64,000 nucleotides of DNA from a plasmid, in sequence record NZ_CP040051.1; one strand, 5' to 3'. A model generated the notes under the pieces. The model ran no database searches and was not told the origin of the DNA. It saw only the letters and a list, made by a program, of their open reading frames with translations. A program made the translations under genes and the position numbers. Every line of letters starts with the position of its first letter. Positions within the stretch are counted from its first letter, which is position 1. Shown here piece by piece: positions 1 through 50,805 of the stretch.

Positions 1-3000
1 TCTTTCTCGACGCAAACATTGAACAATCAAATCTAAGAGTAATTGAGGGAGATTATTCAAAGATTAAATTGAAGCAATTAAACAATAATGAATTATTTGA
101 TTTTACTATCGCAAATCCACCTTTTGGCAAAATCGATAAAACTTCACTTACTTTGAATCAAGCGGGATCATTAGAACGTTTAAATTTTTCTACTCAAAGG
201 TTAGATCATAAAATTTTATTAGAGACACTTTCTTTGAGAAAAGACAAAGGAAGAAGTGTTTTTATTATTGGTTCAGACAGCTTTTATGAAGCTGGCGTAG
301 TCAAGGGTGGAAGTAAAAATTTATTAAATTATCTCTATGATAATTACAATGTTGAAGCGGCCGTAGAGCTCGACGGGAGTTTATATAAGAAACAAGGGAC
401 TCGCGTCAATGTTCGTGTTCTTGTCATTGGTGATCTTCTGGAAAATAACCGTACTTATGAAGTTCCTCATGAGTTGCCCATCATAAATAATGTTCAAGAT
501 TTATGGAGATGGTCGGAAAATGTCCTACAGAAAAGATTACAACCTGAGTTAAGTTACGATGGGCCCTCCCCTTCTATTAATCAAAGTGAATCAGTTATAT
601 CCGAAGCTAATTTTGACCAGAATTTAGATGTGGTAGACGATGCTGATTTCTTAACAAGTGCATTGGATTCATATTTAAATGATCAAATAGTTCCGGATGA
701 GTCCGGTAATGTTGGGGACTTGAATAAACCTGATGATGACGACTTCTTTGGTAATGAGGAAGAAGATACGGCTGTTAAACCTCTTTCTACTGGAGATGAA
801 CACCAGAACAATGAGATTCTTGATCTAGAAATAGTAGAGGATGAATCTCAAGCTCAGGAAATTATTTTTGAATCTAAATCATTGCAAGTTGCATATGTGC
901 CAGTTTCACAACTAAGCTTGCCAGAAACAATGTTGCCAGCAGATCAAGCAATACTTATTAAACAAGCGCAAGATAATCAGATTAAGAAGATCTTGCTTTT
1001 AGCTGAAGTAAATCATGAATTGCAAAAATCTATCGATTTAGCCAATAACAATCCTTTCGACGGCTTTCTACTTTACAAGCTACAGTATTCAGATCTTTCA
1101 TCTCTTTCTAAAGCTTTCAGTGCTGAACAGGTTGATGCTGTTACTTCCGCAATATTAAGCATTGAAAATGACCGCTCTTATATTCTTGGTGATCAAACAG
1201 GTATTGGTAAAGGTCGCTCTTTAGCTGGCATGTTGCGTTATTCTTTAATCAATGGGTTTAGACCAGTATTTTTCACAAGGAATGCACAATTATTTAATGA
1301 TTTATGGCGGGATATCGTAGATACAGGAACAGATAAATTTATTTCTAATCCTTTTATCTTTAATAGTGATGGATTCATTACGCATAAAGACAAGGTTGTT
1401 TATTCTCCTATGAAAACCAGTGATATCTATAATCTAGATAGAATTGGTAATCAGTTTGATATTATCTTTAGTACATACAGTCAATTTTCTGGTAGAAGCG
1501 GTAAGAAAGAAAATCTTTTTCTATCAAGTATTGATAAGAATACCCTATTATTTTTAGATGAATCGCATGTGGCTGCAAGTGGCGAATCGAATATTAGCCG
1601 GTTCCTTTCAGTCGTTAAAGAGCGTACAGGTCCTACTTATCATTCTTCAGCAACAGATAGAAAGAAAGCAAACAATCTACTTTTCTATTCTGATATTTTC
1701 CCTGCATCTTTTAAAGGGCAATTGAAAAGCTTAATCGAAAATAAACCATCTAATGAATTACTAGAAGCTATTTCTATGGCTTTGGTCAAAGACGGTGTTT
1801 TCTTAAGACGTGAACATGATTTTTCTAAACTTGAATTCCGGACATATCACGCATCGACTCAGTATCAAACTGCTTCACGTGAGTTATCCGATCAATTAGC
1901 TCAGGTACTTTCAAAAATGGCATACCTTTCTGGTGATGTAGAAGAGAAAGTTGCCAAAATGAATAGTGAGATTAAACATAATCTTGAGCACATGAAGGAG
2001 GGAAGTTGGCAAGAGAATCGTATGCAAGTGAATTCGATGAACTTTGCTTCAAGAATGCACAATATAAGCCGCCAAATCCTTCTCTCAGTTACTACCCCTT
2101 TGATTATTGATCAAGCACTTGAGTCTCTCAAAGAAAATCGGAAGCCGGTTATTGGTTTGGAAAATACCGGTGAATCGTTGCTTAAAATGTTGCTTCTAAA
2201 AGATTCAAAAGCATTTGAATTGCTGGACCAGATTAATGAACTCAAGGATTCTTCAGATTATGATCGAGCACTGAGTGACCTAAACTCAGGGAAAATGAAT
2301 CAAATTGAATTTGATCAAGAGCCAATTATTGTAAAACTAAAAAAATTAGAACAGGATCTAGCTCAGTTCAAACAAGAAGATACTATTCTTGCAAAACCAC
2401 CGACGATAGCTGACTTACTTGAGAATATGGTTCATAAGTTAGATATTATTCAAGTTCGTGACCGATATGGCCAAGTACGAAGTGAAACCATTGATGACGA
2501 AATCTATTCTGATTTCAAACAAGACATCTTGGATAATATTCGGAAATTACCAGACATTCCTTTATGTCCTTTAGATCTGATAAAAGCTGAGCTGGAGTCT
2601 CGTGGGTATAAAGTCGGGGAGATTTCTGGTAGAGAGTATCAGCTCAAAAAAATTGATTCTAATCAAGGTTCGGTTTTTAAAGTTGAAGTACGTCAAGAAA
2701 ATAATCCGACAGCAAAGACGAAAGCTTGTAATGAATTTCAGTCTGGCATTCTTGATGCAATGATTATTACGAGAGCTGGTAGTACTGGCCTTTCATTACA
2801 TGCTATTCCCGTTAATGATGGTAGTCCTAGCCAATCAGATCATTTGAGGCAACGTGAGTTCCTTACAGGCCAGTCACCTCAAGCAATTGATGAATTCCTA
2901 CAAATGATTGGACGTGTTGATAGAAAAGGCCAAGTTAGTGCGCCGATTATTTCCCAATTTGATACTGGGCTTCCAATTCAACGCAAATTTCTAATGATGC

Positions 3001-4910
3001 ATAATGCTAAACTTGCCGAATTATCAGCGAATGTCACAAGTAACCGTGAAAATGTTAATAAGCAGGTAACTGACGTCGATTTACTTAATAGTTATGGTGA
3101 TGATGTTGCTCTGGAATATCTAGTCCAGAATCGCTCTGTAGCTCAAATGCTTGTCATAAATTTACCTAAAGAAAATGATAAAAATGGCGCTGAAGGTATG
3201 GTTAAGAAAATCTTTAACCGTCTTAATTTTGTTTCCATTTACCAGCAAGAGAAGATTATCGATGATTTAACTTTTGCTTATAACGAAAAGATTCAGAAAC
3301 TTAATGAAATGGGAATTAATCCATTCGTAGTTCAAGTATGTGATTGGAAAGCTCAAACTATCTCTAAACAAGAGTTACAAAGTGGCTTGGGCATTATGTC
3401 GCATGTTTCTGATAGTGCATTTTTCGAACCGGCTTATTTCCAAAAAGTTAGCTATAAATCTGAAACAAAACCTTTTCATGGCGATGATGTTATCTCTTTA
3501 ATTGATAAGTCGAGACAGCTTACACGCCAGCAATTGTTCAAGCATTTATGTAATTTTGATGATAATTTTGCTTCTACTATGGAAGGAAAGGATCAGGAGC
3601 TATCTTTATCTAGTTTAATTAAGTTCTACAATGATGCTCAAAAACAGATTCTCGAAAGAGAATTAAGAGAGTCAATTAAATACTCAGCTTCGCAATCTTT
3701 TTTCAAATCTAAAATTGATAAATATGAATTTACCGAGATTGAAAACTTTATTCTGAATAAACCCAATCTTGATGAAATCAAAGAATTCTTGAAAATATCT
3801 GCTGAAAATAATAATTTTCTTCATATTTATCAAGGGTTAAATAAAGCTTTAACTGTGGTGGAATTTGTAGAAAAGCTTCAGATCTTAGAAGAACATCAGA
3901 GCTTTAATATAAATTTCGCAATAAGCATGAAGGAATCACTTTGGGATCAGCATTACCATCGTGAAACAAATGAAAATGCTTTGATACGAGTTATGTTCCC
4001 GAAATTAGGCGCTTCTAGTCTTTTAGCGAGTAATTATGAAATTCGTTACGTTTATCCAAGTTCAGATTTTGTACACAGTAGTAAGCTCAAATATTTAATA
4101 GAAGATGCTGCTTTAACTCCTACTCTATTACGGAATGTTGGTACTCATTTATTTATTGATGGAAATAAAAAGGAAGAAGAGTTTTCATTTATGAAAACTT
4201 TAAATGAAATAGAGTACTTAAAAACTAATAGTCCCCTTTTGCTTTCTTTCGATAAGTACGAACCAACCGCTATTGAGCGAACTGCAACCCTTTTAACTGG
4301 CAATATTATCAATGCCCTTAATGCTGCCTCAGTAGCTAAATTATCTTCTCAAATGATTAATTACACCGATGCTAGTGGAAATAGACAACGAGCAGTCATG
4401 CTATATGACGACTGTGAGTTGGAAGAAGTTTTAGACAAAGTTAAAGGTCTTTCAACAATACAAGAGGCGATTACTTATTTTGAACGTGTAAATGATGCTA
4501 TAGAGATGAATGAAAAACCTACTCTTCCGGATTTCTATATTGTTCGTTCAAATTCAAATGGGAACCCAACTATTGAACTCAATCTAAAACCTCTAAATGA
4601 TGAAACATATAACTTTGTTATTACTGGTAGCAGAAAACATTTAAAACAAGTTGCTGAGATGGATTCTATATTTGTACAAGCTGGCTCAGGAAATAGATCA
4701 GATAGTTTGAATTTAGTCCTTAAGGGAGATCTATCACAAGGAGCTCGTTCTAGCCAGACAGTTCAGGTCCCTATTGAAAAAGTAACTAAACTGCTAACCA
4801 ACCTTTCCACTGAATTTTCTACTGTGAAAATTAATAATCTTGATCCAGACGTCTTAGATCAACTTAAACCGAATACGTCGAATAAACTTACTCAGAATCT
4901 CATGTATTAG
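1..4910 (+). CDS. 5'-truncated giant DNA methyltransferase/SNF2-like helicase fusion protein (polyvalent, plasmid-type); the reading frame is open to position 1
   Basis: N6-adenine MTase motif IV 'NPPFGK' lies near the N-terminus. Helicase motif I 'DQTGIGKGRS', motif II 'LFLDESH' (DExH) and motif VI 'QMIGRVDRKGQ' are present. There is no stop codon between position 3 and the first Met at 69, so the gene starts upstream of the window. Confidence 0.6.
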   Translation, partial: FLDANIEQSNLRVIEGDYSKIKLKQLNNNELFDFTIANPPFGKIDKTSLTLNQAGSLERLNFSTQRLDHKILLETLSLRKDKGRSVFIIGSDSFYEAGVVKGGSKNLLNYLYDNYNVEAAVELDGSLYKKQGTRVNVRVLVIGDLLENNRTYEVPHELPIINNVQDLWRWSENVLQKRLQPELSYDGPSPSINQSESVISEANFDQNLDVVDDADFLTSALDSYLNDQIVPDESGNVGDLNKPDDDDFFGNEEEDTAVKPLSTGDEHQNNEILDLEIVEDESQAQEIIFESKSLQVAYVPVSQLSLPETMLPADQAILIKQAQDNQIKKILLLAEVNHELQKSIDLANNNPFDGFLLYKLQYSDLSSLSKAFSAEQVDAVTSAILSIENDRSYILGDQTGIGKGRSLAGMLRYSLINGFRPVFFTRNAQLFNDLWRDIVDTGTDKFISNPFIFNSDGFITHKDKVVYSPMKTSDIYNLDRIGNQFDIIFSTYSQFSGRSGKKENLFLSSIDKNTLLFLDESHVAASGESNISRFLSVVKERTGPTYHSSATDRKKANNLLFYSDIFPASFKGQLKSLIENKPSNELLEAISMALVKDGVFLRREHDFSKLEFRTYHASTQYQTASRELSDQLAQVLSKMAYLSGDVEEKVAKMNSEIKHNLEHMKEGSWQENRMQVNSMNFASRMHNISRQILLSVTTPLIIDQALESLKENRKPVIGLENTGESLLKMLLLKDSKAFELLDQINELKDSSDYDRALSDLNSGKMNQIEFDQEPIIVKLKKLEQDLAQFKQEDTILAKPPTIADLLENMVHKLDIIQVRDRYGQVRSETIDDEIYSDFKQDILDNIRKLPDIPLCPLDLIKAELESRGYKVGEISGREYQLKKIDSNQGSVFKVEVRQENNPTAKTKACNEFQSGILDAMIITRAGSTGLSLHAIPVNDGSPSQSDHLRQREFLTGQSPQAIDEFLQMIGRVDRKGQVSAPIISQFDTGLPIQRKFLMMHNAKLAELSANVTSNRENVNKQVTDVDLLNSYGDDVALEYLVQNRSVAQMLVINLPKENDKNGAEGMVKKIFNRLNFVSIYQQEKIIDDLTFAYNEKIQKLNEMGINPFVVQVCDWKAQTISKQELQSGLGIMSHVSDSAFFEPAYFQKVSYKSETKPFHGDDVISLIDKSRQLTRQQLFKHLCNFDDNFASTMEGKDQELSLSSLIKFYNDAQKQILERELRESIKYSASQSFFKSKIDKYEFTEIENFILNKPNLDEIKEFLKISAENNNFLHIYQGLNKALTVVEFVEKLQILEEHQSFNINFAISMKESLWDQHYHRETNENALIRVMFPKLGASSLLASNYEIRYVYPSSDFVHSSKLKYLIEDAALTPTLLRNVGTHLFIDGNKKEEEFSFMKTLNEIEYLKTNSPLLLSFDKYEPTAIERTATLLTGNIINALNAASVAKLSSQMINYTDASGNRQRAVMLYDDCELEEVLDKVKGLSTIQEAITYFERVNDAIEMNEKPTLPDFYIVRSNSNGNPTIELNLKPLNDETYNFVITGSRKHLKQVAEMDSIFVQAGSGNRSDSLNLVLKGDLSQGARSSQTVQVPIEKVTKLLTNLSTEFSTVKINNLDPDVLDQLKPNTSNKLTQNLMY

Positions 4911-6999: not shown

Positions 7000-7395
7000 A
7001 TGAACATGAGCACTTTCCCCCACCCTAACATATATGAAGATGGTTGTTTTGCTGGGGCAGCAGAAATGAACTGGCTAAAACCAATTTTTGAAAAACAGAT
7101 ATATGTTAAATTTAAAAAAAATTCCTTTTCTCCTTTTTTTCTTGATAAGGTTAAAAGTGATTATTACTGTGAAGCAGACATTTCCGAAATTGAGAAAGAT
7201 GAAGTTTATATTGTCTATATAAATTATGGAGAAACAAAGCTTTATGAGAAGGAGAATCAATATAGCCTTATATTAAAAGTAAAAATTATTAATGGAGAGT
7301 ATAGGGAATATGTAGAAGGTTGCTCACTCAGGGGTGAACAGATGCCGCTTGAATCTATAAATTATAGCTTGAGGGCAATTTTCGACTTTAATTGA
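7000..7395 (+). CDS. hypothetical protein
   Basis: ORF in a same-strand operon context; no motif recognised. Confidence 0.3.
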   Translation: MNMSTFPHPNIYEDGCFAGAAEMNWLKPIFEKQIYVKFKKNSFSPFFLDKVKSDYYCEADISEIEKDEVYIVYINYGETKLYEKENQYSLILKVKIINGEYREYVEGCSLRGEQMPLESINYSLRAIFDFN

Positions 7396-11005: not shown

Positions 11006-12139
11006 ATGAAAAAGAAAACGACGTTTTTACTATTATCAGTTTTTAGTACTTCTGTAATTGCTGCTTACTGTCCTCCTTTTTCAAATCCATTGATACTCAG
11101 AGATTTTATAAGCGGTTTTCAGCAATTAAATGCGACATTCACGACTGGACTTAATACTTTGGATCAAAGTGTTAGTGCAGCTTTAACTACAGAACGCCAA
11201 TTACTTTTAAATGCAATTGCTTTGAAGACAACACAAGAAGCAATGAATGCTTCCTCAATTGCTCATGCGGACCAAGAAATTGCAAAGGCGACTGCTAATG
11301 CTATTGGCGCTGTTAAACAATCAGAGCGTTTAAAAGAAACAGCTATTGATTTTGGAGCTGCTGGACAAGGCTATAACCCATGTAAGGTTCTAAATGAACG
11401 TAGAACAATTACTGAAACTCAAGTAAGGGATAAAGAAAATAGACCAGATTTAATTTTTAAGGAAATTTCAGCGGGAACGGGAAAATATGCAAATCCTGTA
11501 GTTGCTCAAGAACAAACACTTAAGCTTCATCACGATTATTTTTGTACATCAGAACAAGTATCAGCCGGCTTATGTATGAGCGTAGGTGAAATGTCTGGTG
11601 CAAATTTGCAAGCCTCTACTTTATTTGAGTATTCATCAGCGAATGATAAGTATGCTATTGCAAAAACTAGCTTCATTAACAATATGGTTGGTTTGCCGGA
11701 TGCACCCTTATCTGCTAATGCAGCCAAAACGCCTCGTGGTAAAGAATACATGAGACAGAAAGTTGAAAATGATGCAGTTATTTCACCAGCTATTAATAGT
11801 TTAATGGCAATCAAATCTGAATTTACTGAAAACCCTAATGGTGGTGAGTTTGGTCAACCTGTTAAACCATTGCGACAACAATATCGGGAACAAGTAGACC
11901 GTTATCTTGGTCATGGTGAAGAATATAAGAATTGGAATAGAACATTAGTTGCTGCACCTGAGCGTGGGGTACTTGTAGAGATTCTTAAAGAAGGTGCATT
12001 AGAGCTTGCAATCATGGGAAATAAACATGCTCAAAACGAACGTATTGAAGCAAATTTAGCTTCTTTAGTTGCATTAGAAAATAAAAAGGCAAACTCGCTT
12101 AATAAATCTAATATAGCTGGTTCTGCTAAAGCTAAATAA
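11006..12139 (+). CDS. secreted Cys-containing protein, paralog 3 of 3
   Basis: Signal peptide 'MKKKTTFLLLSVFSTSVIAA'. Motifs 'GQGYNPCKVL' and 'FCTSEQVSAGLCMSV'. Start overlaps the stop of the previous gene. Confidence 0.55.
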   Translation: MKKKTTFLLLSVFSTSVIAAYCPPFSNPLILRDFISGFQQLNATFTTGLNTLDQSVSAALTTERQLLLNAIALKTTQEAMNASSIAHADQEIAKATANAIGAVKQSERLKETAIDFGAAGQGYNPCKVLNERRTITETQVRDKENRPDLIFKEISAGTGKYANPVVAQEQTLKLHHDYFCTSEQVSAGLCMSVGEMSGANLQASTLFEYSSANDKYAIAKTSFINNMVGLPDAPLSANAAKTPRGKEYMRQKVENDAVISPAINSLMAIKSEFTENPNGGEFGQPVKPLRQQYREQVDRYLGHGEEYKNWNRTLVAAPERGVLVEILKEGALELAIMGNKHAQNERIEANLASLVALENKKANSLNKSNIAGSAKAK

Positions 12140-12144
12140 TACAT

Positions 12145-12242
12145 AGTTTTCATAAATGAAAACTTTTAGTTTGAACTATTCTTGCTAGAAGTTTTCATAA
12201 ATGAAAACTTTTTTATTGGGTAAGTTTTCATAAATGAAAACT
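12145..12242. promoter_or_regulatory. array of three identical 20-bp near-palindromic operator sites upstream of the 12263 operon
   Basis: Exact copies of AGTTTTCATAAATGAAAACT at 12145..12164, 12190..12209 and 12223..12242. Each has 9-bp inverted arms around an AA centre. The array lies 20-118 bp upstream of the ATG at 12263. Confidence 0.6.
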
Positions 12243-12262
12243 AATCTAAAAGTGGTGATGAT

Positions 12263-15200
12263 ATGAAATGGTTGAATTTATCAGAATTCGGACTGCATCT
12301 AGGGTTTCGAAAAGCAACAAGCTTTAGAGATAAAGTTGCCGTACTGACTGTCAATGATTTAAATACTTTATCACGGTTCATTCATTTAGTTGATTTAAGT
12401 GAAAAACTACAAGCAATAGGATTTAACCGTGTCAATTCAGATGACGGGAATGCAAAGTTTGTAAAAGCTGATAATTCAATCAATCCAAAACAATTAGCTT
12501 CAATATTGCCAATCACAAATAAACATTTACAAGAAATGCCGGAGAATGATGCTAGAGCGAAATTTCATGTAGATAAGCAAGCATGGATAGATTTGACTGC
12601 AAAACTAGCTCAACAAGGTTCAGTTTGGAAACTAGATGAAAATTATTACAATGAAGCAGGTATACACTGGAAAAATAAAATTAGTGAAAACTACCTAGAT
12701 CTATCTACAAAGCAAGATGAAAGATACATAAATTTAGCTTTTGAAAGCCCTTTACCAGTAAATTTGTTAGAAACTTATAAATATGATTCAAGAGCATTGG
12801 GTGTACTAACTACTAATAAGGAAATACTGATAAGAAAAGGCGTGCCAGAAGAGGCTTTTACAGAAGTACAATTAAACTTTATGTTGCCATTATTATCATT
12901 AGAAGATGAAGTTCATATAGTTCTAAATGATATCCGTGAAGTACCAGAAATATTAGAGTTGCATCCAGATATATGGCGTCAATCGATCAATAGTTTTGAA
13001 TCCTTTTTAACAAGATCAAAATTATTAGAAAAAATAAATAATCTTTTGATAAATGATGAATTCTTGGACAAATCAAATGAAATTGTAAATGATATAAAAG
13101 TGTTTTATGACACGTATAACAAATGCTTACTAAGTAAAGAAGAATTTTCAAATGATGATGATTTAACAAATCACCGTATTCAGTTGTTGAAAAACCAAAT
13201 TATAAAGCTCGATAAATTTGGTGTGATTAATGAAAATTTATTACCAAAGCTTGATAACATCTATGACTCTTCAATTGAAGAAACTGTACTAGAACCTGAA
13301 AAGGAAAATAAGTCCCTTAATGAAAGAATTGAGGACTATGGAGAATATGTTTTCGGAGCTAGAAAACATTTTTATCAGAAATCTAAAAATGCACTTTTCG
13401 AAGAATTGAATAGTTCAAAAGACCTATCTTTAGATGTTCTCATAGATAAATTCCAAAAACGAAATTTATGGTCATTCAAAAATGAAACCATGAGCCAGAT
13501 TGAAGACAACAATGTGATCTTTTTCTTAGCTCAATCAGTCTACAACATGATTCCTTCTAAAATCTCTTTCTCCAAAGATGAGAGAAAAGACTCTGAAGAA
13601 TGCATTGATAAGTTAAAAAGCTATATGTATTCAGTTAACCATTTTAAAGAAATGGTCCATACGGCTATAGAATTAGACAAAAATGAAAGAATGCCTATAG
13701 CTAATTTTGTCAATCAAATGGTTAACTATAGAAACGTCTTAAGAGGTTATGCTCAGGATCCTCAGCAATTCTTATTTGATGAATTAGATGAGGACCGTTT
13801 ATTAGCAGATAGGATATATAAGGTTGTAAAAGGTACGACTCTTAGAGGAAGTCCTTTATTTCAAATTATGAATAATTTGGATACTGTCAAAACACAGTAT
13901 TGCAAAATGATGTTTAATGAAGTCTATCCAGAAACTAAAGAAGTCTCATATGATCAATTTCAAGACTATGTTGAGTCCGGCGGTCACATATATGATGGTA
14001 GTGCAATAAAACAATTTATAGACGCAGCTAATGGTAAGTTAGATTACACATATCTTTCGCGCCAATTTGAGCGTTTAGAAGATAGCTTGGGTCAGGAATT
14101 ATTCCTAAACATGATTGTTACAGGAAATAAGCCATTTTCAGATGCTTTATTTAAAAATGTTGAAAAGATTTTAGAAAGCGATAAAAGCATTAAAACACCT
14201 TTAGATTTCGAAAAAGATGATTCTAAACTTAATTATCTACTTTCTTTATATCGTTTTAAATTCGATTCAAAGTATTCAATTCCTGATATCTATATCAAAG
14301 ATGAAAACCAACATACTCAAGTTATCACTGACTTGAGTTCAACTGATAAATTTGATGGCTTAGTTAGAAAGATATTAAAAGACCAAGAGCCTAATCGACT
14401 TGATTTACGCTATCCATCAATTGTATCTGGTCTTGCACATGAGACATCAAAAAATTTTCGGCATGGTGAAAATGTAAATCCAGAACAATTTAGTAATGTA
14501 TTTGGATTTCGAGCAATACAGTTTGGAAACTGGGTGACACAACAAGAAAGACAGCATTTATTGAATATCACATTTGATGGTCTAAGTGAGCTAAGAGATG
14601 CTCTCGGATTTGATTCAAAGAATATTTCTTTAAATGGTACTTTAGCTATCGCTTTCGGTGCGCGGGGGCAAGCTGGACGAAATGCAGCATCAGCTCACTA
14701 TGAATATGCTAGCAAAATTTTTAACCTAACCAAACAAAATGGAGCAGGTTGTTTAGCACATGAGTGGTTCCACGGGCTTGATGCATATATGGCCCAACTA
14801 GTAAGAAAAGATGTAGAGAAATTGATTTATAAAAGTGGAAATTTTGAATCTGTAGAAAACAACTATTTTTTAACACATTTAATGTCAGACGTTGACTATA
14901 AAACATGTAAAACAGTTATAGATAACAATCCATTATTGAAAAGTGTTTATGAGCTTCAATTAAAACTGAATGGAAAAATGCATAGAGATGAAATTTTTAG
15001 TGAAAATGGAAAAGAGTTAATAGTAAATCGTATACATGAGCTAGTTGATAGCAATTTAAAAAAAGTAAATGTATTAATGGATGCAATTTCAAAGTCTTTG
15101 GAAAAGCAAGGTCTTAGTAGAGTAGCATCATTGTTAGATGGAGTGACAACAAACCATGTAGACAATGTAAAAAAATTAAAAAATCAAGAATTAACGAAGA

Positions 15201-15997
15201 ATATTAAGAATTACTTGGTAGATAATGATCTGCATATAAAAAGAGACCAAATGTATAGTGCGGTGAAAACAATCTATAAAGAATTGCAAAATAACAATGC
15301 GCCAGTTGGAAAATATACAATTGCGAATCCAATTACCCGTGAATTCAATTCATTGGTTCGTGGTTCACAAGTCAATGATGATCTTGCGAAATCAGAGAAG
15401 GAAATATTGAAACATCTAAGATCACATAAGATTATTAAAGAAATGGAAAAGTTACTTCATGAATCAGTATTCTATTTAGTACAAAGACAAACATTACCTT
15501 TGTTTATAGATCAAGTGAATTCTATAGGTGGAAATAAAATAAGCATTCTAAAAGGGGTTGCGCTAGATCACTACCAGTCTTATATGGAAAAATCATTTCA
15601 GACAGGGAAGGGGGTAGCAAATAAACTTGATTTAGACCTTGTCTTTAATAATAACAATTTTGCAAGCCAGTCAAAATTACTGGATAAAGACAAGAAGCAA
15701 TATTTTTCATTAGTTGCAGAAAGGTTCGCACGATGTGGAGAAGCGCTGGTAACAGATTTACTTGCTGAAAAAAGCGTACAAGTAGATTACTTAGTAACTT
15801 GCATGGAGGATCCACAAACAGTAGGGCAACGAGCTGGTATCACTCCATCTGGTAATGACCGAACTGAAATTTTAAAAGCTTTTAAATCAGTGATTGAAGC
15901 TTGCCGTAGTTATGCTTTTAATCTGGATAAAGATATCAAAGAGGAAAATGAAGTTAATCAAAAATTGTCTACTACACTGTCATTTGGAGCTAATTGA
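12263..15997 (+). CDS. large (1244 aa) protein with a zincin-like HExxH metallopeptidase-type domain
   Basis: 'LAHEWFHGLDAYM' (HExxH) is embedded in an approximately 120-aa block ('FGNWVTQQERQ...IAFGARGQ...') that is clearly homologous to ORF 27438..29096. No Walker motif is present. Confidence 0.5.
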   Translation: MKWLNLSEFGLHLGFRKATSFRDKVAVLTVNDLNTLSRFIHLVDLSEKLQAIGFNRVNSDDGNAKFVKADNSINPKQLASILPITNKHLQEMPENDARAKFHVDKQAWIDLTAKLAQQGSVWKLDENYYNEAGIHWKNKISENYLDLSTKQDERYINLAFESPLPVNLLETYKYDSRALGVLTTNKEILIRKGVPEEAFTEVQLNFMLPLLSLEDEVHIVLNDIREVPEILELHPDIWRQSINSFESFLTRSKLLEKINNLLINDEFLDKSNEIVNDIKVFYDTYNKCLLSKEEFSNDDDLTNHRIQLLKNQIIKLDKFGVINENLLPKLDNIYDSSIEETVLEPEKENKSLNERIEDYGEYVFGARKHFYQKSKNALFEELNSSKDLSLDVLIDKFQKRNLWSFKNETMSQIEDNNVIFFLAQSVYNMIPSKISFSKDERKDSEECIDKLKSYMYSVNHFKEMVHTAIELDKNERMPIANFVNQMVNYRNVLRGYAQDPQQFLFDELDEDRLLADRIYKVVKGTTLRGSPLFQIMNNLDTVKTQYCKMMFNEVYPETKEVSYDQFQDYVESGGHIYDGSAIKQFIDAANGKLDYTYLSRQFERLEDSLGQELFLNMIVTGNKPFSDALFKNVEKILESDKSIKTPLDFEKDDSKLNYLLSLYRFKFDSKYSIPDIYIKDENQHTQVITDLSSTDKFDGLVRKILKDQEPNRLDLRYPSIVSGLAHETSKNFRHGENVNPEQFSNVFGFRAIQFGNWVTQQERQHLLNITFDGLSELRDALGFDSKNISLNGTLAIAFGARGQAGRNAASAHYEYASKIFNLTKQNGAGCLAHEWFHGLDAYMAQLVRKDVEKLIYKSGNFESVENNYFLTHLMSDVDYKTCKTVIDNNPLLKSVYELQLKLNGKMHRDEIFSENGKELIVNRIHELVDSNLKKVNVLMDAISKSLEKQGLSRVASLLDGVTTNHVDNVKKLKNQELTKNIKNYLVDNDLHIKRDQMYSAVKTIYKELQNNNAPVGKYTIANPITREFNSLVRGSQVNDDLAKSEKEILKHLRSHKIIKEMEKLLHESVFYLVQRQTLPLFIDQVNSIGGNKISILKGVALDHYQSYMEKSFQTGKGVANKLDLDLVFNNNNFASQSKLLDKDKKQYFSLVAERFARCGEALVTDLLAEKSVQVDYLVTCMEDPQTVGQRAGITPSGNDRTEILKAFKSVIEACRSYAFNLDKDIKEENEVNQKLSTTLSFGAN

Positions 15998-32936: not shown

Positions 32937-33815
32937 TTATTTATATTGCTTTAAAATTAAAGTCAGATCCTTAATCAGTTCACCTAAAGAATTTACAACT
33001 TCTTCACGTTCTTCAGGATCTTTGATTTCGCCCTTATGTAGTTTCGATACTAACGGTAAGCTTTCTTTAGCTTTCGATAGAATATCCTCAATTACAGTTT
33101 CATTGAGTGAAACTTCTTTTGATTTAGGTTTATCTTTTTCAAGATCTGTTTCAAAAGTCTTTTTGAATTTTTGTACTTCAGCAATACCAATTTTTTTAGC
33201 TGTTGCAGATTGTTTTTCAACCCAAGCACGTACATCTACTTTATGATCACGATATAAAACTGCAATCTCATACATTGCTGAGAAGTCATTTAATAGATTG
33301 CGATTACACATATCTTCCAGAGTTTCGAGAATTTCTTCATCCAACCCATCGGTGATAGCTACAATCTTTGAAACTTTTGCATCACCATAAGCCAGCGTTT
33401 TACCGATTTGACGTTGGCTGTATCCTTTAGCCTTTAAGCGAACAATAGCACGACTAATATCATAAATAGTCATGTCTTCATTCATTGTGTTAGCTGTTAA
33501 CTGGTCCAACTCTGTAAAGCTTTCTACAACAACGGCTGGGATCTTATCAATTCCAGCACGAAGGCTGTTTTTAACTCGTCTATTGCCATCTTTAACAATA
33601 AAACGGTTGCTATCATGAGGATGCTTTATAAGAATAACGGGTATACGAACACCGCTTTCACGAATACTTTCTTCAAGATCTTTTTCTTTAGCTTCAATGA
33701 ATGTCTTACGTGGGTTTTCCGGATCGAGATCGATTAGATGGAGTTCAATTTCTTTTTGTTCGGCATTAGCTTCTGTTTCATCATCCTTAAGGATTGAATC
33801 TAATAACATACTCAT
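32937..33815 (-). CDS. parB: ParB-family partition/centromere-binding protein
   Basis: ParB N-terminal motif 'RFIVKDGNRRVKNSLRAG' (GxRRxxA box). Sits immediately downstream of parA. Confidence 0.7.
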   Translation of the reverse strand: MSMLLDSILKDDETEANAEQKEIELHLIDLDPENPRKTFIEAKEKDLEESIRESGVRIPVILIKHPHDSNRFIVKDGNRRVKNSLRAGIDKIPAVVVESFTELDQLTANTMNEDMTIYDISRAIVRLKAKGYSQRQIGKTLAYGDAKVSKIVAITDGLDEEILETLEDMCNRNLLNDFSAMYEIAVLYRDHKVDVRAWVEKQSATAKKIGIAEVQKFKKTFETDLEKDKPKSKEVSLNETVIEDILSKAKESLPLVSKLHKGEIKDPEEREEVVNSLGELIKDLTLILKQYK

Positions 33816-33818
33816 GAT

Positions 33819-34703
33819 TTATTCTCCTTTACCAGATGTATTGAACACAGATAATTTAAGTTGAGTGCCAACTTGTTTGAATATATTGGTAAATGTTCGT
33901 TTGACATCACGTGATGATGTTTTATTAATATGCCAACAAGCAGTGCCATAAGTGACTGCTTCTTCTATAACATTCTTATCCGTTATATATGCCATATTAG
34001 ATTTATCTTGGTAGAACAAATTGGTTTGCTCAGCCACTTCCAACAACTTAGATAGTTCATTCTTTTGAATATTTGATTTTAAATTAACCATATTGGGAAC
34101 AATACCGCCAATTAATAACTTGGGGTTGTTCGTTTTTTTAATTTTATTAGCAAAAGACAAATAATCTCGAATACCATCCGATGCGTATTGTTTAAGCATT
34201 GTCGGAATTAAAACTACATTTGATACTGATAAAGGTAGAAGCATTAAATTACTTAGAGTAGGGGGTGTGTCGAATATAATAACTGTTTTATATTTCAATA
34301 ACTTACTAATATTATCTTTAAAAATAGTAACTAGATCAACATCGCTACTCGTGTTTATATTAGCGAGTGCTTTAGTTGGTCGAAAAACGCCAATTGAGCC
34401 ATTTTGTAAGTCGCACTTAAGATTATGATTATCTTTAAGAAAAAGAGAAATTGCGTCCCCTAAGTTATGTACAGGTGAGGTTGGTCGCGTCACATATTCT
34501 GGTAATACTGTATTTGAATTGAGCATTAATAAATGACCAGAGCTGTTGCCTTGATTATCAAGGTCCACGACAATTACCTTGTAGCCATGTTGAGAAAAAA
34601 AGTACGCAGAATGTACGGTAAATGTACTTTTACCGACGCCACCTTTTCCATTACCAATAGTTAAGATACCGGCATCTTTAATTTGTGAAGTCTTGTCGTT
34701 CAT
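33819..34703 (-). CDS. parA: ParA-family partition ATPase
   Basis: Deviant Walker A 'GNGKGGVGKSTF' and 'VVDLDNQGN'. Confidence 0.85.
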   Translation of the reverse strand: MNDKTSQIKDAGILTIGNGKGGVGKSTFTVHSAYFFSQHGYKVIVVDLDNQGNSSGHLLMLNSNTVLPEYVTRPTSPVHNLGDAISLFLKDNHNLKCDLQNGSIGVFRPTKALANINTSSDVDLVTIFKDNISKLLKYKTVIIFDTPPTLSNLMLLPLSVSNVVLIPTMLKQYASDGIRDYLSFANKIKKTNNPKLLIGGIVPNMVNLKSNIQKNELSKLLEVAEQTNLFYQDKSNMAYITDKNVIEEAVTYGTACWHINKTSSRDVKRTFTNIFKQVGTQLKLSVFNTSGKGE

Positions 34704-34817
34704 GTGCTTATCCTATTTATAAAAATCAGGGCGAACTCTTGTAGAAATCACTACCCGTCCACCGCATGATTAATAGAATAGCAGAATATTAAATTTATGA
34801 AAGTATTTTTCCAAAAA

Positions 34818-34837
34818 AATTTTCATTTATGAAAACT
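34818..34837. promoter_or_regulatory. operator copy (19/20 match, TT-centre orientation) in the parA upstream region
   Basis: AATTTTCATTTATGAAAACT lies 115 bp upstream of the parA start and abuts the stop of the 34837 ORF. Confidence 0.5.
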
Positions 34838-35484
34838 TAATTAGACATTTGATTCGAACTAACAAACATATCCATAATTTCTAGATCAATGTTTTTGATA
34901 TTTATAGAATACATTTTTAATGTTTCTATCGCATCTGGAAAAAAATCCAATGGGTTACTTAACTGATCTTCAATAGAAGAGAGGGCAATATTTGGCATTG
35001 CTCTTGAGGTTAAGTTGTTGATATAAAACACATTACACCAAGATGGGAAAATAAATTCTTGCTTGAGGTGAAGCTCAAAAATATTTAGTAAAACACCTTT
35101 TAGTTTTAAAGCAGACTCAGGACCAAAAACATTTGGTGCATTTAGCGTACCTAAGCAGTAGGAGAACTTTACAGTAAGAGAGTTTTCAGGAATTAAGTGG
35201 AAAACGTATACATAAAATTTATTTGGATCGTCATCAGATCTTAAAGTGAAGATTTGATCCTTACTCTCATATTCCTTTTTTTCTTTAAAAATATGTGATT
35301 GCTTTTGACCATTCGACATCAAATCATGTATCAGCAAGTTAGCTTTCTGCAACATTTCTGAGGCTGCCACAACATCTAAAACATGTTTCGGATTAGGTGA
35401 TTGCTTGAGTCTACTCATAAATTTATTAGGATCATTCTGATTTGAACGGAATACTCGTTCAAGTAATTCTAGAGAAAGCTGCAT
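34837..35484 (-). CDS. hypothetical protein
   Basis: ORF. Confidence 0.35.
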   Translation of the reverse strand: MQLSLELLERVFRSNQNDPNKFMSRLKQSPNPKHVLDVVAASEMLQKANLLIHDLMSNGQKQSHIFKEKKEYESKDQIFTLRSDDDPNKFYVYVFHLIPENSLTVKFSYCLGTLNAPNVFGPESALKLKGVLLNIFELHLKQEFIFPSWCNVFYINNLTSRAMPNIALSSIEDQLSNPLDFFPDAIETLKMYSINIKNIDLEIMDMFVSSNQMSN

Positions 35485-41138: not shown

Positions 41139-42197
41139 TCAAAGCTTCGAAATATACTTTGCACATTTATACATGCCACGTGCATTCGCAAATTCAGGCT
41201 GTTTTACAAGGTGCCAGTTATCATAGTTGAATCGTTTAAGTAGCTCGTCACCAAGCGTGATTGAACCTCCACCAACGAGCAACACTGCTCCTAGATCTTG
41301 ACCGTCTTGCACATTCACTTTGATAGAGTTTTCAATCTGATCAGTTATTTCAACCTTTGCAGCATTTAAGATTTTTGAAATATCGTGATCTTTCCCGCCA
41401 TGATTATAAATGCCGGTCTTCAAGGCTTTAGAGAGTCGCCAATCTGTAATATTTGAAGAAAGCCCGAAAAACTCCTTAAGATTTTGACTTACCTTATTTT
41501 TTAAAGTAATTATCCCTACATCTAGAGTGTCGCAGCGAGAAGCTTGCATGGTGCCGCCACGGGGATTAATCATTGCAATATCGGTAGTGCGACCACCAAT
41601 ATCGATAATTGCACAACCACCTTCCCATAAATCTTCATACATACTTGAGCGTTTGCCATTATCATCCATGAGAGCATCAAAATAAGCACATTGACCCTCA
41701 GAAAGAACGATATGGTTTAAAATTTGCAAAGGATCATTTTTTTTGTCGTGCTCATAAAGATTGTAAACAGTAGGGTTGTTAAAATCCTTATTAATCAATA
41801 GATTTTGAGTTTTGTCAGCAATCAACTTCTCATTTTTAGCTTTGTCTTTACCACCGTAGTACTGATTTAATGGTAAGCCAGTTGCAATTTTAAATTTACG
41901 GTATTGGCCATCAAAAGCTTGGTGAAGAGCATGGTGCACAAGTGCGACATTCGCATCACTTAGCGGATAATCTTCAGTACGTGTATCAATATGCTCTTTT
42001 GTAAATTCATCGACAGTAAAATACTTGCCATTAACGTGAATGATTTGTTTGTTTACTTCATCGGTATCACCAATAATGGTGCGTCCATTGGCGACTCGAC
42101 TTGGTAGACGAAAAGATTTACCCACTTCACCACAATAAATCTTGATTCCGTCATGGCCATCATCGACGCCAACTGTCAATGTTTTATAACCTTTCAT
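41139..42197 (-). CDS. actin-like ATPase of the ParM/StbA family
   Basis: Phosphate-1 'VGVDDGHDGIKIY', phosphate-2 'IIDIGGRTTDIA' and adenosine motif 'LLVGGGSITLG' are collinear with ParM. Confidence 0.6.
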   Translation of the reverse strand: MKGYKTLTVGVDDGHDGIKIYCGEVGKSFRLPSRVANGRTIIGDTDEVNKQIIHVNGKYFTVDEFTKEHIDTRTEDYPLSDANVALVHHALHQAFDGQYRKFKIATGLPLNQYYGGKDKAKNEKLIADKTQNLLINKDFNNPTVYNLYEHDKKNDPLQILNHIVLSEGQCAYFDALMDDNGKRSSMYEDLWEGGCAIIDIGGRTTDIAMINPRGGTMQASRCDTLDVGIITLKNKVSQNLKEFFGLSSNITDWRLSKALKTGIYNHGGKDHDISKILNAAKVEITDQIENSIKVNVQDGQDLGAVLLVGGGSITLGDELLKRFNYDNWHLVKQPEFANARGMYKCAKYISKL

Positions 42198-46050: not shown

Positions 46051-47955
46051 ATGAAGGCTGGCTCGGAATTAGAATTCAATGCAAAAAAATATCCAAAAAG
46101 TATTAAAGGCTTGGAGACACGTGTATTTGATTATTCTGAGAAAACAATAATCAGATATACCAATGTTTGGAAAAAACTTTTAAAACAATATGGGTTAGAA
46201 GATCAAGTTTTGGTAAATCCAGAATATACGCTGGAAACAGTAGTAAATAATCTTATTTCTGAATATGGAAATAATGAATTGCGAAACTCCACTTTTAGAC
46301 ACTATCGATCTGCACTTATTCATCGTATGGGGGTGATCTTGAGTGAACAAAAGAGGGATGGTGAGAAGCTTGTAGCATTGCCTAAGCTGGCAAGACTTTT
46401 TGAAAGTTTGAAAGCAGTTGAGGCGACTGATGATAAAAAACAGCCGAACCGATCTAGCAGTTCGAAGCTCAAGTACTTTCCAAAAGATCTTTATGAATTT
46501 GTGTTAGGCAGCAGTTTTAATTTGAACAGGTCTAATTTGGGGTTGATGTTAAAGCTGTTTATAGAAGCAAATACTATGATTGGATTGAGGCCAGTGGAGT
46601 GGCAAAGCTTAAGGTTGGCATGTGATGTTGAAGAGAGATGCTTATCTCTTGTGGTCGATAATGCAAAAAATACTCAGGGTAGAGCGAACGGCGACATAAG
46701 GATTCTTAATATGATTGAGCCTGATCCAATCAAGCTTAAGAATCAATTAAGGGCAATACTTGGGTTTAAGAGATTGCTCGATTTAGAACTGGAGGCAAGA
46801 GCTAGAAAGTTCTTAACTGAAAGAAGTAGAGAGACTAATGAAACTTATAAAATTTACATCGCAAGTAAAGAGCCAGACAGTTTTGAATTTGAGTTCATTC
46901 ATTGGAAAGGTTCCCAAACCGTTAACTGTATAGAAGCCGTAAACTGTATAAAACCTGAGAATGGAACTGGAGAAACCGTAAACTGGATTTCTACTGAAAA
47001 CGAACTTGAGCAAAATATTGAAGATAGAACAAACGGCGCATTACCTTCCATAAACGGACCAGATACCGTAAACAGAATATCGTCCGGACATGGCCAGAAT
47101 ACGACTGACGGCAATAAAGCTGGCGGTAGTGAATTTAACTATGAGCGAGTGATTGAAGACGGCGCTCATTCTTCCGTAAACGGAATAAATACCGTAGACA
47201 GAATATGGGCCGTAGACGGAATAAATAAAGTTGATGGGAGTGATCACGGCGCATTACCTTCCGCGAACGGACCAGATACCGTAAACGGAATAAAGGCCAT
47301 AGACGGAAATAATACAGTTGATGGAATTAACGCCGTTGCCGGAATAAAGGGGGGTGGGACAAATCAAGCCATTTCTACTGCTTCTACTGCGCCAGCTCCA
47401 GAGTTGACCGACTTCGGATTTAATTCAGTTGCCGGAGAAATACAGCAAACTGGTAGAAATACCGATCACGGAAAAATGGCTGCCTTATTGGGTGCTTATA
47501 ACGCCGTGGTAATTGAAAGTTATGTTGATCGTTATGGCACGATTCAATATGCACTATGTCAAAGTGTGATGGATTCATTGCAACGTAAATTAAAAGATAT
47601 GAGCAATGAATTTTATGAAAAGAAAAAGTTTGGTTTACCTGAAGAGTTAGCTTCAAATAAAGCAAATGCTACGATTTACAGTACACGCCATCAAGCGGTA
47701 GCTAATCGAAAAAAATATAAGTGGAAAGAAGAAGAGGTCGCAGGTTGGTTTGGGCATGCAAGTGTTCAAACGGCGTCAAGACACTATGGTGTGGCTGGTA
47801 AAGGTTGGGGGGATAAACCTATGTTTAGAACTTCGAAATTTAGTCTTGAAAAAGTCAGAATGAGAGAGCAGCAAGTTAATCAAACCAAACAGCTCACGGA
47901 AGAAGATGTATTAAATTCGGTTTTATCTGATAAAGATTTAGATGATCTATTGTAA
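46051..47955 (+). CDS. tyrosine site-specific recombinase (integrase) with an internal repeat insertion
   Basis: C-terminal 'FGHASVQTASRHYG' (LGHxxxxxTxxY catalytic Tyr box). 'STRHQAVANR' (HxxR). 'LRPVEWQSLRL' (box I Arg). Confidence 0.65.
   Translation: MKAGSELEFNAKKYPKSIKGLETRVFDYSEKTIIRYTNVWKKLLKQYGLEDQVLVNPEYTLETVVNNLISEYGNNELRNSTFRHYRSALIHRMGVILSEQKRDGEKLVALPKLARLFESLKAVEATDDKKQPNRSSSSKLKYFPKDLYEFVLGSSFNLNRSNLGLMLKLFIEANTMIGLRPVEWQSLRLACDVEERCLSLVVDNAKNTQGRANGDIRILNMIEPDPIKLKNQLRAILGFKRLLDLELEARARKFLTERSRETNETYKIYIASKEPDSFEFEFIHWKGSQTVNCIEAVNCIKPENGTGETVNWISTENELEQNIEDRTNGALPSINGPDTVNRISSGHGQNTTDGNKAGGSEFNYERVIEDGAHSSVNGINTVDRIWAVDGINKVDGSDHGALPSANGPDTVNGIKAIDGNNTVDGINAVAGIKGGGTNQAISTASTAPAPELTDFGFNSVAGEIQQTGRNTDHGKMAALLGAYNAVVIESYVDRYGTIQYALCQSVMDSLQRKLKDMSNEFYEKKKFGLPEELASNKANATIYSTRHQAVANRKKYKWKEEEVAGWFGHASVQTASRHYGVAGKGWGDKPMFRTSKFSLEKVRMREQQVNQTKQLTEEDVLNSVLSDKDLDDLL
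46915..47352 (+). repeat. in-frame degenerate tandem DNA repeat inside the recombinase gene
   Basis: Repeated 'ccgtaaacgg(a/t)ata' units encode the T/D-V-N/D-G/R-I peptide repeats. Contains a near-identical 42-bp direct repeat at 47031..47072 and 47245..47286. Confidence 0.55.
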
Positions 47956-48575: not shown

Positions 48576-48902
48576 ATGAAAAAGCTTTTTATAGGGCTTG
48601 TAATAATAGTAATTGCGCTGATCATCGTTACACAATACTTCAAAGCTAGAAGTTACAAAGTTGAAGTTGATGATAAGGGTTACTACATACTCAATGAAAT
48701 GTATGAGCATGTTAAAAATAGTAAGGCTGGAGATGAGCTTGAAATACGGCTTCACACGGCGTTGGATGATGGGATTATCACTCAGGCTGAATATACATAC
48801 CTCACGGACTCTGAATTGCCATCGATGGCAGTTCAAGCCAGTGATAAAGAATATAAAGAAGCCAAGCTAAAAATTTTGAAAGAGTTCAAAAAAGTTTCAT
48901 AA
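48576..48902 (+). CDS. small N-terminally TM-anchored protein, paralog B
   Basis: 'LDDGIITQAEY...YKEAKLKILKEFKK' is parallel to the 48228 ORF. Confidence 0.4.
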   Translation: MKKLFIGLVIIVIALIIVTQYFKARSYKVEVDDKGYYILNEMYEHVKNSKAGDELEIRLHTALDDGIITQAEYTYLTDSELPSMAVQASDKEYKEAKLKILKEFKKVS

Positions 48903-48950
48903 ATGAAAGTTTGTATCTATAGAACAGCTTAGATCCGTTCTCGGACTAAC

Positions 48951-48987
48951 ATACAGTAAACGGTATTAGTGACGGTAACGGATAAAG
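48951..48987 (+). repeat. intergenic repeat unit R1 (ATACAGTAAACGG...ACGGATAAAG family)
   Basis: 'atacagtaaacggtattagtgacggtaacggataaag'; follows a degenerate operator copy at 48893..48910. Confidence 0.5.
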
Positions 48988-49040: not shown

Positions 49041-49487
49041 ATGATAGAAAACTCACCTATCCCACTAATTGATAAATTAGTAAAAGAAAAAAATTTTGTT
49101 CTTCTAACTTGGGATGCTCGCTATTCCAGTGGGGCATGGGCATGTTGTTTGCCTTATCTTAATCAATGTGAAGTTGTTTATGAGGCTTCTGAAGATGGTG
49201 ATACTCTGATGATCCCTAAAATGGAATATTTACTTAATACTAATTGGCTTCCCATTATGGATGGCTCAAGCGCTATGGATGCCTTAGAAAAGTTAGAGAC
49301 TCGTTTAGCAACATTGCCAACTGATTTTCTTGCTGACAATGATTGGATTAATGCAACTGATGAAGCCATAAATTATTTAAGTAGAATTTCAAAAAAGTAT
49401 GAAGATGATGATGGTGGAATGGATGGAAAACTAAAACCTCTACCTATTGACTACAGAGAGATTAAGTTTCCTCAAGGCTTGTCCTAA
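49041..49487 (+). CDS. hypothetical protein
   Basis: ORF. Confidence 0.35.
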   Translation: MIENSPIPLIDKLVKEKNFVLLTWDARYSSGAWACCLPYLNQCEVVYEASEDGDTLMIPKMEYLLNTNWLPIMDGSSAMDALEKLETRLATLPTDFLADNDWINATDEAINYLSRISKKYEDDDGGMDGKLKPLPIDYREIKFPQGLS

Positions 49488-49488
49488 A

Positions 49489-49524
49489 TCAGTAAACGGT
49501 ATAAACGCCGTGGACGGATAAAGG
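49489..49524 (+). repeat. intergenic repeat unit R2
   Basis: 'atcagtaaacggtataaacgccgtggacggataaag'. Confidence 0.5.
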
Positions 49525-50648: not shown

Positions 50649-50805
50649 ATACAGCGTAACCAATTCCGGCTACGGAAAAATACAGTAAACGGGCTTGGGT
50701 CCGGACACGGCGAATATTAAGTTTTCAGTTATGACAGATGAAAGGACTAATTCCGGAAGCGGAGGAATACAGTAAACGGAAATAGGTCCGTACACGGAAA
50801 CACAG
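50649..50805 (+). repeat. intergenic repeat cluster R4 (three units)
   Basis: 'atacagcgtaaccaattccggctacggaaaaa', 'atacagtaaacgggcttgggtccggacacggcgaatattaag', 'atacagtaaacggaaataggtccgtacacggaaacacag'. Confidence 0.5.

Follow-up and report, generated by a model that had tools for sequence, protein, structure and literature searches.

The 64,000-bp stretch of plasmid sequence record NZ_CP040051.1 analysed here (the window) carries several copies of one short palindrome, three of them packed between positions 12145 and 12242, and the question raised by this locus is which protein, if any, reads them. The window also encodes a parA-parB pair. We conclude that the palindromes probably serve as parS/operator sites for the type I ParABS system that the plasmid itself encodes, with its KorB-like ParB as the binder (probability about 0.75). 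The kinship of ParB to KorB is seen directly, as is a difference of a single base per half-site between the motif and a ParB site proven by experiment. That ParB binds the palindromes, that they work as a centromere and that they mediate repression are what we infer from the comparisons described below.

Scanning the window for the perfect 20-mer, AGTTTTCATWWATGAAAACT, returned exact copies at 4180, 12145, 12190 and 12223. Allowing up to three mismatches gave six copies, including 34818 (one mismatch) and 62056 (two mismatches). By chance, 0.08 matches would be expected at this threshold, and none of 100 shuffled sequences reached six. The 14-bp core, TTTCATWWATGAAA, is perfect at 4183, 12148, 12193, 12226, 34821, 48895 and 62059 (0.01 expected). 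A sequence-only reading of the same DNA had listed the four perfect 20-mers, the triple array and a 19/20 copy at parA, and had considered a chance origin very unlikely; all of its coordinates proved correct, and the counts above bear out its view of chance. That reading had also described copies at 48893 and 62057 as degenerate. Both are present, but their cores are perfect and only the flanks differ.

The window is matched at 99.98% identity by pWM98-2 (NZ_CP116388.1, 169,443 bp; positions 4544-68544, reverse strand), and the whole-plasmid motif scan suggested by the sequence-only reading was carried out on that plasmid. It returned eight perfect cores, seven of which fall in the window, which is conjugation and maintenance backbone, and two of which lie inside open reading frames (ORFs). 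The eighth (pWM98-2 90503-90516), which precedes the stop of an ATP-binding-protein gene by about 100 bp, is the only core in the largely accessory ~100 kb outside the window. The sites are real and far beyond chance. A one-mismatch core, TTTCATTGATGAAA, at 59219-59232 inside a 1094-aa ATPase gene could be a weak site or a chance match, about 7 matches with up to two mismatches being expected by chance.

Pooling 20 sites (40 half-sites) from the window and its relatives extended the consensus to about 24 bp, AAA-R-Y-TTTCAT-WW-ATGAAA-R-Y-TTT, with AAANNTTTCATWWATGAAANNTTT as the search-pattern form of the palindrome. All pooled half-sites have TTTCAT, and only W occurs at the centre. C, T or G is found at -8 and A, G or T at -9, while A is nearly invariant at -10 and predominates from -10 to -12. 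The bases at -8/-9 are specific to lineage, being GT in the window lineage (GTTTTCAT) and AC or TC in the lineage of the Acinetobacter sp. Z1 plasmid (A(A/T)CTTTCAT). Flanks that differ by lineage around an invariant core fit a co-evolving plasmid-encoded binder rather than a common host factor.

The window is the backbone of a family of large conjugative Acinetobacter plasmids that includes pAB3, pA297-3, pAB04-1 and pWM98-2. PLSDB types plasmids of the pAB3/pA297-3 family as MPF_I (Dot/Icm-like) and MOBP. These are clinically important resistance plasmids, and little of their basic maintenance biology has been annotated. With a 35-nt probe spanning one site, 64 Acinetobacter plasmid records were matched in PLSDB; among those listed, all belonged to the pAB3/pA297-3 family, with matches at 5-6 places per listed record, and the remaining matches were weak, partial and from unrelated genera. 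By this probe, the sites are confined to the pAB3/pA297-3 family, and no decoy sites on other Acinetobacter plasmids were seen among the matches listed. It should also be noted that two contigs of a phage collection (CAKLQF020000023.1 and CAKLQH020000019.1, 'Acinetobacter phage MD-2021a', ~69 kb) are 99.2% identical to the backbone across 6 kb; they are probably plasmid contigs misfiled as phage.

To what extent the sites are kept by selection can be judged from two syntenic, diverged relatives, plasmid unnamed2 of Acinetobacter sp. Z1 (98,420 bp; hereafter Z1) and pFA648. In global alignments, Z1 backbone proteins are 24-77% identical to those of the window (ParB 49%, ParA 52%), a divergence at which non-coding DNA is expected to be randomised. 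Z1 carries seven perfect cores, two of them inside ORFs, and at least four are at homologous places. Two cores lie upstream of the LPD1 gene in both Z1 and pFA648, compared to three in the window. In Z1, one core is found ~122 bp upstream of parA, and another, at 70001, occupies the small-gene cluster downstream of a 634-aa gene, equivalent to the 48892 site, although the small genes themselves are not homologous. The core inside the Z1 strawberry-notch gene occupies the same frame at 731 nt from the stop, compared to 728 nt in the window, and the peptide encoded there differs (EFSFMKT and KLSLMKV in the window/Z1 comparison). A core that is kept in frame where the local peptide is poorly conserved points to selection on the DNA, not the protein. 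We found no equivalent of the 62056 site in Z1. Z1 also has perfect cores specific to its lineage (36636 and 37307), which flank or lie within a hypothetical gene near a topoisomerase gene. The pWM98-2 core at 90503 is likewise outside the common set and confined to one lineage.

We used tblastn of PLSDB, a large protein index, genome contigs and metagenome contigs to find further relatives of ParB. These searches recovered two lineage groups (90-100% and 44-50% identity) and one 69% identical protein on a 1-kb contig. At each of nine further ParB loci (44-50% and 90-95% identity), drawn from species genomes, metagenomes and PLSDB, parA is preceded at ~115-130 bp by a perfect core. Across the parA-upstream comparison set (Z1, L010, L011/L012, L013, L015, L016, L017/L018, L019 and L021), the core is present in every locus recovered. 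The sites are conserved in position across deep divergence.

Within the window, the three units of the array (12145..12164, 12190..12209 and 12223..12242) are identical, perfect 20-mers (AGTTTTCATAAATGAAAACT), the second starting 45 bp after the first and the third 33 bp after the second. The first copy lies 5 nt past the stop of gene 11006-12139, and a gap of 20 nt separates the third from the ATG of a 1244-aa LPD1-domain gene (12263-15997). The array is unchanged in pAB3 (positions 2270-2367). The intragenic palindrome, also a perfect 20-mer (4180..4199), falls in a strawberry-notch/SNF2-type helicase-methylase gene (69-4910), with the stop 728 nt further on. At parA, the palindrome (34818..34837; 19/20, perfect core) is 114 nt upstream of the ATG at 34703 and overlaps the stop of the upstream gene, 34837-35484. 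Two sites combine a perfect core with variant flanks. One of these (48892..48911, AAGTTTCATAAATGAAAGTT) is at the end of ORF 48576-48902, upstream of 49041-49487, and the other (62056..62075) lies between the 1094-aa ATPase gene (58755-62039) and 62103-62513.

The parB (32937..33815, minus strand) and parA (33819..34703, minus strand) genes are adjacent on the same strand, 3 nt apart, with a convergent umuC downstream of parB. ParA is a 294-aa Walker-type ATPase (Pfam AAA_31/CbiA/ParA; Walker A near residue 19). An N-terminal helix-turn-helix extension is missing, which rules ParA out as the operator binder. ParB (292 aa; WP_000062236.1) has a ParB_N domain (Pfam), a helix-turn-helix domain and a predicted C-terminal helical hairpin, and it is the best candidate binder of the palindrome, as the sequence-only reading had proposed. 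When the ParB profile was compared to the PDB, KorB (8qa8) ranked first with an E-value of 9e-23 (residues 21-204, N-terminal and DNA-binding domains); 1r71, KorB-O on its operator, was matched at 8e-8, and chromosomal ParB, Spo0J and Noc ranked after KorB. Foldseek with an AlphaFold 2 (AF2) model also placed 8qa9/8qa8 first, with a target-normalised TM-score of 0.67 for 1r71. The model was built from a 4-sequence alignment and is of poor quality overall (mean pLDDT 60), but is usable for the DNA-binding domain and the C-terminal hairpin. It has two long helices at 238-290 (pLDDT ~85) and no beta domain, to which the 4-sequence alignment gives moderate weight. The nearest ParB homologues outside the family are in operons of the korA-incC-korB type, and the nearest one adjoins a TrfB-related gene.

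Several sequence features of ParB bear on its possible activity. Box I reads DPENPRK, and P-motif 2 reads GNRRVK with both arginines kept. In KorB, R117 acts in CTP binding and N146 in clamp closure (PMC11790492). The equivalents in ParB are R79 and N108, both invariant in the relatives. The candidate DNA-contact residues A145, K146, S148, K149, the DFSA-YE block and K206 are likewise invariant across relatives of 44-100% identity, and the DFSA-YE block aligns with the KorB segment that contains what we take, by a numbering estimate, to be T211. These invariant recognition residues match the invariant core but do not discriminate between binders. Domain scans of ~50 backbone ORFs (Pfam, and for some also PHROGs) detected a sequence-specific DNA-binding fold in ParB only, and the small backbone ORFs yielded neither a KorA/TrfB-like family nor any other with a helix-turn-helix. 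H-NS and TetR genes are present elsewhere on pWM98-2, and a TetR gene is also present on Z1.

Some observations weigh against ParB as the reader of the palindromes. The recognition helices of IncC ParB (TFVSTHLSL) and KorB (AFITQHVTL) do not resemble its own, AKVSKIVAI, and together with the 25% identity between the ParB proteins of the window and IncC this means that close kinship of the proteins does not account for how alike the sites are. No relative recovered has any change in the core, which therefore offers no covariation with ParB recognition residues. In these relatives the motif is always accompanied by the remaining backbone, so another, unannotated conserved protein could be the binder. 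Box III, finally, is degenerate (ENLQR is replaced by ANTMN in TANTMNED, lacking E, Q and R and containing N108), which makes clamp behaviour of ParB uncertain.

Could another protein of the plasmid be responsible, with the centromere of ParB located elsewhere? The palindromes would then be operators of an unannotated regulator, such as a small KorA/ArdK/StbA-like protein or a backbone TetR. Most backbone ORFs have no recognisable domain and could hide a DNA-binding protein, the motif travels with the whole backbone, and palindromes of comparable size are bound by TetR regulators, which pWM98-2 and Z1 both encode. However, the one invariant location of the motif is upstream of parA, the motif nearly equals the proven IncA/C ParB site, and a search of the window for repeats found no other palindrome or repeat family beside parAB that could be an alternative centromere. 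TetR proteins were rejected as binders since the sites are not near TetR genes, the closest being 3.4 kb away in pWM98-2 and 5.5 kb in Z1. An AbrB-like ORF adjacent to one site (48576-48902) was also rejected; its Pfam match is weak (E 0.004), and Z1 lacks a homologue of it although the motif is retained there. We therefore regard a different plasmid regulator as improbable. A chromosomal DNA-binding protein of the Acinetobacter host, recruited by the plasmid, is far less credible still. The core is identical in plasmids of several Acinetobacter species, but the flanks differ systematically between plasmid lineages, the ~100 kb of accessory DNA on the same plasmid has one site only, and the 64 Acinetobacter plasmid records matched by the PLSDB probe are, among those listed, all of one family. 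To our knowledge, the motif matches no Acinetobacter regulator box (e.g. Fur, Zur, ARG box or UmuDAb).

The palindromes might also act as RNA or single-stranded DNA, that is, as weak bidirectional terminators, in RNA processing or control of LPD1 translation, or as initiation signals on the transferred strand. The predicted RNA fold of the array is strong (-38.6 kcal/mol, z = -6.7), several copies have A-runs before and T-runs after them, and most lie between genes of long same-strand runs. Such a fold is, however, automatic for repeated palindromes, and the stems are A/U-rich with a 2-nt centre. Furthermore, the primary sequence itself stays constant from site to site and between diverged plasmids, without compensatory changes, a coding sequence carries one of the conserved copies in frame, and neither an Rfam match nor a terminator-like match was found at the sites, which makes an RNA or single-strand role very hard to credit. 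We consider it just as implausible that the triple array represents iteron-like initiator sites of the replication origin. The pAB3/pA297-3 family has no known rep gene or oriV (10.1101/2022.08.26.505409), identical sites are clustered in the array, and the downstream LPD1 protein is labelled DNA primase in one record. Against this, the array consists of palindromes at irregular 45/33-bp spacing instead of phased direct repeats, its copy number varies by lineage (3 or 2), single copies are scattered over the backbone with one inside a gene, and the best-conserved copy is at parA. The GC-skew profile has no origin signal; strand bias is monotonic, hence uninformative. A dif-like core site for a tyrosine recombinase was rejected. 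The left arm resembles the XerC arm, TTTCGCATAA, but a 6-8 bp spacer is absent, the bases beside the centre do not vary, and recombination at scattered sites would disrupt the synteny that the backbone shows.

Returning to the plasmid's own ParB, its dimer would recognise the 14-bp core TTTCAT-WW-ATGAAA together with A/T-rich flanks. How this might affect transcription depends on the promoters near the sites. A conserved half-site, AAAAATACTTTCAT (34810-34797, minus strand), lies 31 bp downstream of the parA-proximal palindrome, followed by a candidate extended -10-like element, TGcTATTCT (34783-34775, minus strand), in the arrangement TTTCAT-16-nt-TATTCT. In the parA upstream alignment, the half-site block and the TTTCAT-16/17 nt-TATTCT spacing are kept in Z1, L010, L011 and L013. 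As TATTCT follows the half-site after 16-17 nt, the half-site occupies the place of a -35 element, and 34775..34810 is a candidate parAB promoter. Bound to the palindrome and half-site that overlap this conserved promoter-like arrangement, ParB could autoregulate parAB, a possibility that we somewhat favour. An inverted repeat, GGTGRAYGRGC ... GAGTTCRCC, is also present in the presumed parA 5' leader (~34765-34727, minus strand) and kept in Z1, L010, L011 and L013; pAR060302 (IncC) has an analogous GGTGGTC..GATCACC directly after its parA-proximal parS. This repeat could be an RNA hairpin or a second operator.

Conserved and credible promoter context was found at the parA-proximal sites only. 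No sigma-70 consensus promoter was found in 11900-12500, which covers the triple array, or at 4180. The match TTCAAA-18-CATAAT at 62011-62040, just upstream of the 62056 site, is at chance level, as are the matches near 48892. It should also be noted that AT-rich elements of 34-44 nt, TTTTTAAAAA(TTGACA)...TTTTTAAAA, recur at 7084, 16385, 21047, 24356, 38946, 45192, 45689, 47975 and 50938. They are mostly intergenic, ahead of gene runs such as 16422, 21209, 24501 and 51011, and resemble common promoter architecture. The ParB-type palindromes are not at these elements.

The sequence-only reading had proposed a global repressor of plasmid operons. This part of it is not supported, since most sites are not at sigma-70-like or AT-rich promoter-like elements and no KorA-like partner was found. 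With no consensus promoter at the array or at 4180, other matches at chance level and the AT-rich elements elsewhere, we consider it doubtful that ParB is a KorB-like global silencer. The three perfect, close copies at 12145-12242 would have the highest occupancy of the loading sites and make the best candidate for the main centromere, although whether the array is the main centromere or loading site is, in our estimation, an even bet. The isolated sites (4180, 48892, 62056 and pWM98-2 90503) may be extra loading sites over the backbone, as in IncA/C.

Having loaded at its sites, ParB might slide as a CTP clamp and could dampen neighbouring transcription; the CTP-pocket arginines and the clamp-closing asparagine are kept, making a clamp possible. 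That ParB is a KorA-independent, KorB-style CTP clamp whose loading at dispersed sites does more than partition seems to us unlikely. If it were so, ParB at the array and at intra-operon sites would be a roadblock or silencer tying transfer and establishment genes to the level of ParB; the triple array lies directly against the ribosome-binding site of the gene for the LPD1 polyvalent protein, and Dot/Icm-type transfer genes harbour the intra-operon sites. The flanks (GT or AC) would then set partition incompatibility between co-resident plasmid lineages, and decoy sites could, by analogy to SGI1, enable other elements of Acinetobacter to exploit the partition system as hitch-hikers or to evict the plasmid.

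Other features of the window deserve mention. Between the LPD1-2 gene and parB, the segment 29205-32869 encodes a DUF6088/AbiEii toxin-antitoxin-like pair and umuDC, without homologues in Z1; pAS5-1 has an Abi-family gene at the equivalent position, and the segment looks like an accessory insertion beside the par locus. A gene for a ParM/StbA-family actin-like ATPase (41139-42197, minus strand) is located within the Dot/Icm-type transfer run and has a Z1 homologue of 62% identity. No ParB-type palindrome and no obvious parC-like repeat array was found beside it, and its product may act in a further partition system or in transfer. Besides the ParB motif, and unrelated to it, the window has another family of dispersed repeats, whose units contain short CCGTnnACGG palindromes (CCGTAAACGGAAT, CCGTAGACGGAA, CCGTACACGG) repeated every ~18 bp. 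These form a dense array at 47033-47362 inside ORF 46051-47955, with intergenic copies between the downstream small genes (48954-48987, 49478-49523, 50659-50803 and 54291-54336), and may be a binding site of another plasmid protein, e.g. a relaxosome component or regulator.

In the literature, we found no paper with the motif or describing a parS or centromere for the pAB3/pA297-3 family. What is new is a KorB-like ParB with probable IncA/C-style dispersed parS on an unrelated MPF_I Acinetobacter backbone. This is an expected kind of element, and the finding, while useful, would not surprise a specialist. ParB sites would provide sequences for plasmid-curing and incompatibility tools and for ParB-based plasmid tracking in cells, a signature for typing plasmid lineages, and a means to test whether a KorB-like clamp regulates Dot/Icm-type conjugation.

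Among known systems, the sequence-only reading had pointed to chromosomal parS. Chromosomal parS, TGTTNCACGTGAAACA, is bound by Spo0J/ParB, and box A of P1 parS reads ATTTCAC. The palindromes described here share with both the half-site TTTCA(C/T), a dimeric helix-turn-helix ParB as the likely binder, and multiple sites of which some are inside genes; once loaded at sites of this kind, proteins of the ParB family spread or slide with CTP. However, the half-sites here are 2 bp further apart, ParB is nearer to KorB than to chromosomal ParB, and the replicon is a plasmid, not a chromosome. The likeness noted in that reading thus holds for the half-site TTTCA, but the closer match is the IncA/C parS, TTTCACATGTGAAA (PMC10954446).

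The resemblance to KorB of RK2/RP4 is mainly one of protein and layout. KorB, with its N-terminal CTPase and DNA-binding domains, is the best solved homologue of ParB (PMC11790492; 1r71), and the equivalents of R117 and N146 are conserved. In both cases a palindrome is repeated around the plasmid, ahead of the protein's own operon and also far from promoters, and one protein could do both partition and regulation. The KorB C-terminal domain (KorB-C) is SH3-like, whereas that of ParB is a predicted helical hairpin. The centre of the KorB operator, TTTAGCSGCTAAA, is unrelated, a KorA/TrbA-like partner was not found here in scans of small backbone ORFs, the sites in the window have no consistent relation to promoters, and there are 8 sites compared to 12 in RK2 (see also PMC10954446).

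The closest parallel is the IncA/C group. Plasmid R55 (IncC) has 14 parS sites scattered over its backbone, 4 of them inside ORFs and one overlapping the parA promoter, and its purified ParB, which has ParB and KorB domains, shifts 22-bp AAAC-TTTCACATGTGAAA-GTTT sites in electrophoretic mobility shift assays; the core alone is not shifted, and binding is lost when 4 bp are inserted at the centre (PMC10954446). We verified sites of the IncC type in pAR060302 and pRA1, e.g. CAAAACTTTCACATGTGAAAGTCT. There are clear differences between the two systems. Identity is 25% over 157 residues for ParB and 23% for ParA, and the IncC parA-parB-053 operon has no counterpart here of the 053-like gene after parB. 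The parA-proximal site is ~115 bp upstream and accompanied by a half-site here, but ~50 bp upstream in pAR060302, and that of R55 overlaps the predicted -10 box (PMC10954446). The tandem triple array is a feature of the plasmid studied here, whose MPF_I/MOBP backbone is unrelated to the MPF_F/MOBH backbone of IncA/C. The base beside the centre is T/A here and C/G in IncC, one base per half-site; no IncC core with up to one mismatch was found in pWM98-2 or Z1, nor the window core in the IncA/C loci fetched.

The two systems nevertheless have much in common. The cores are identical at 12 of 14 positions (TTTCACATGTGAAA in IncC, TTTCATWWATGAAA in the window; an example from Z1 is AAAAACTTTCATTAATGAAAGTTTTT), and in both the site, ~22-24 bp in total, has a palindromic 14-bp core that does not vary and is centred on 2 bp of A/T, between AAAC/GTTT flanks that are less well conserved. 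In both, ParA is without an N-terminal helix-turn-helix, ParB combines ParB_N with a KorB-type DNA-binding domain, and 7-14 copies are scattered over the backbone, most of them intergenic, some in ORFs and one in the parA promoter region. The scattered-parS architecture of IncA/C thus recurs on an unrelated backbone, and near-identical sites paired with ParB proteins that are only 25% identical make a useful case for how ParB reads DNA.

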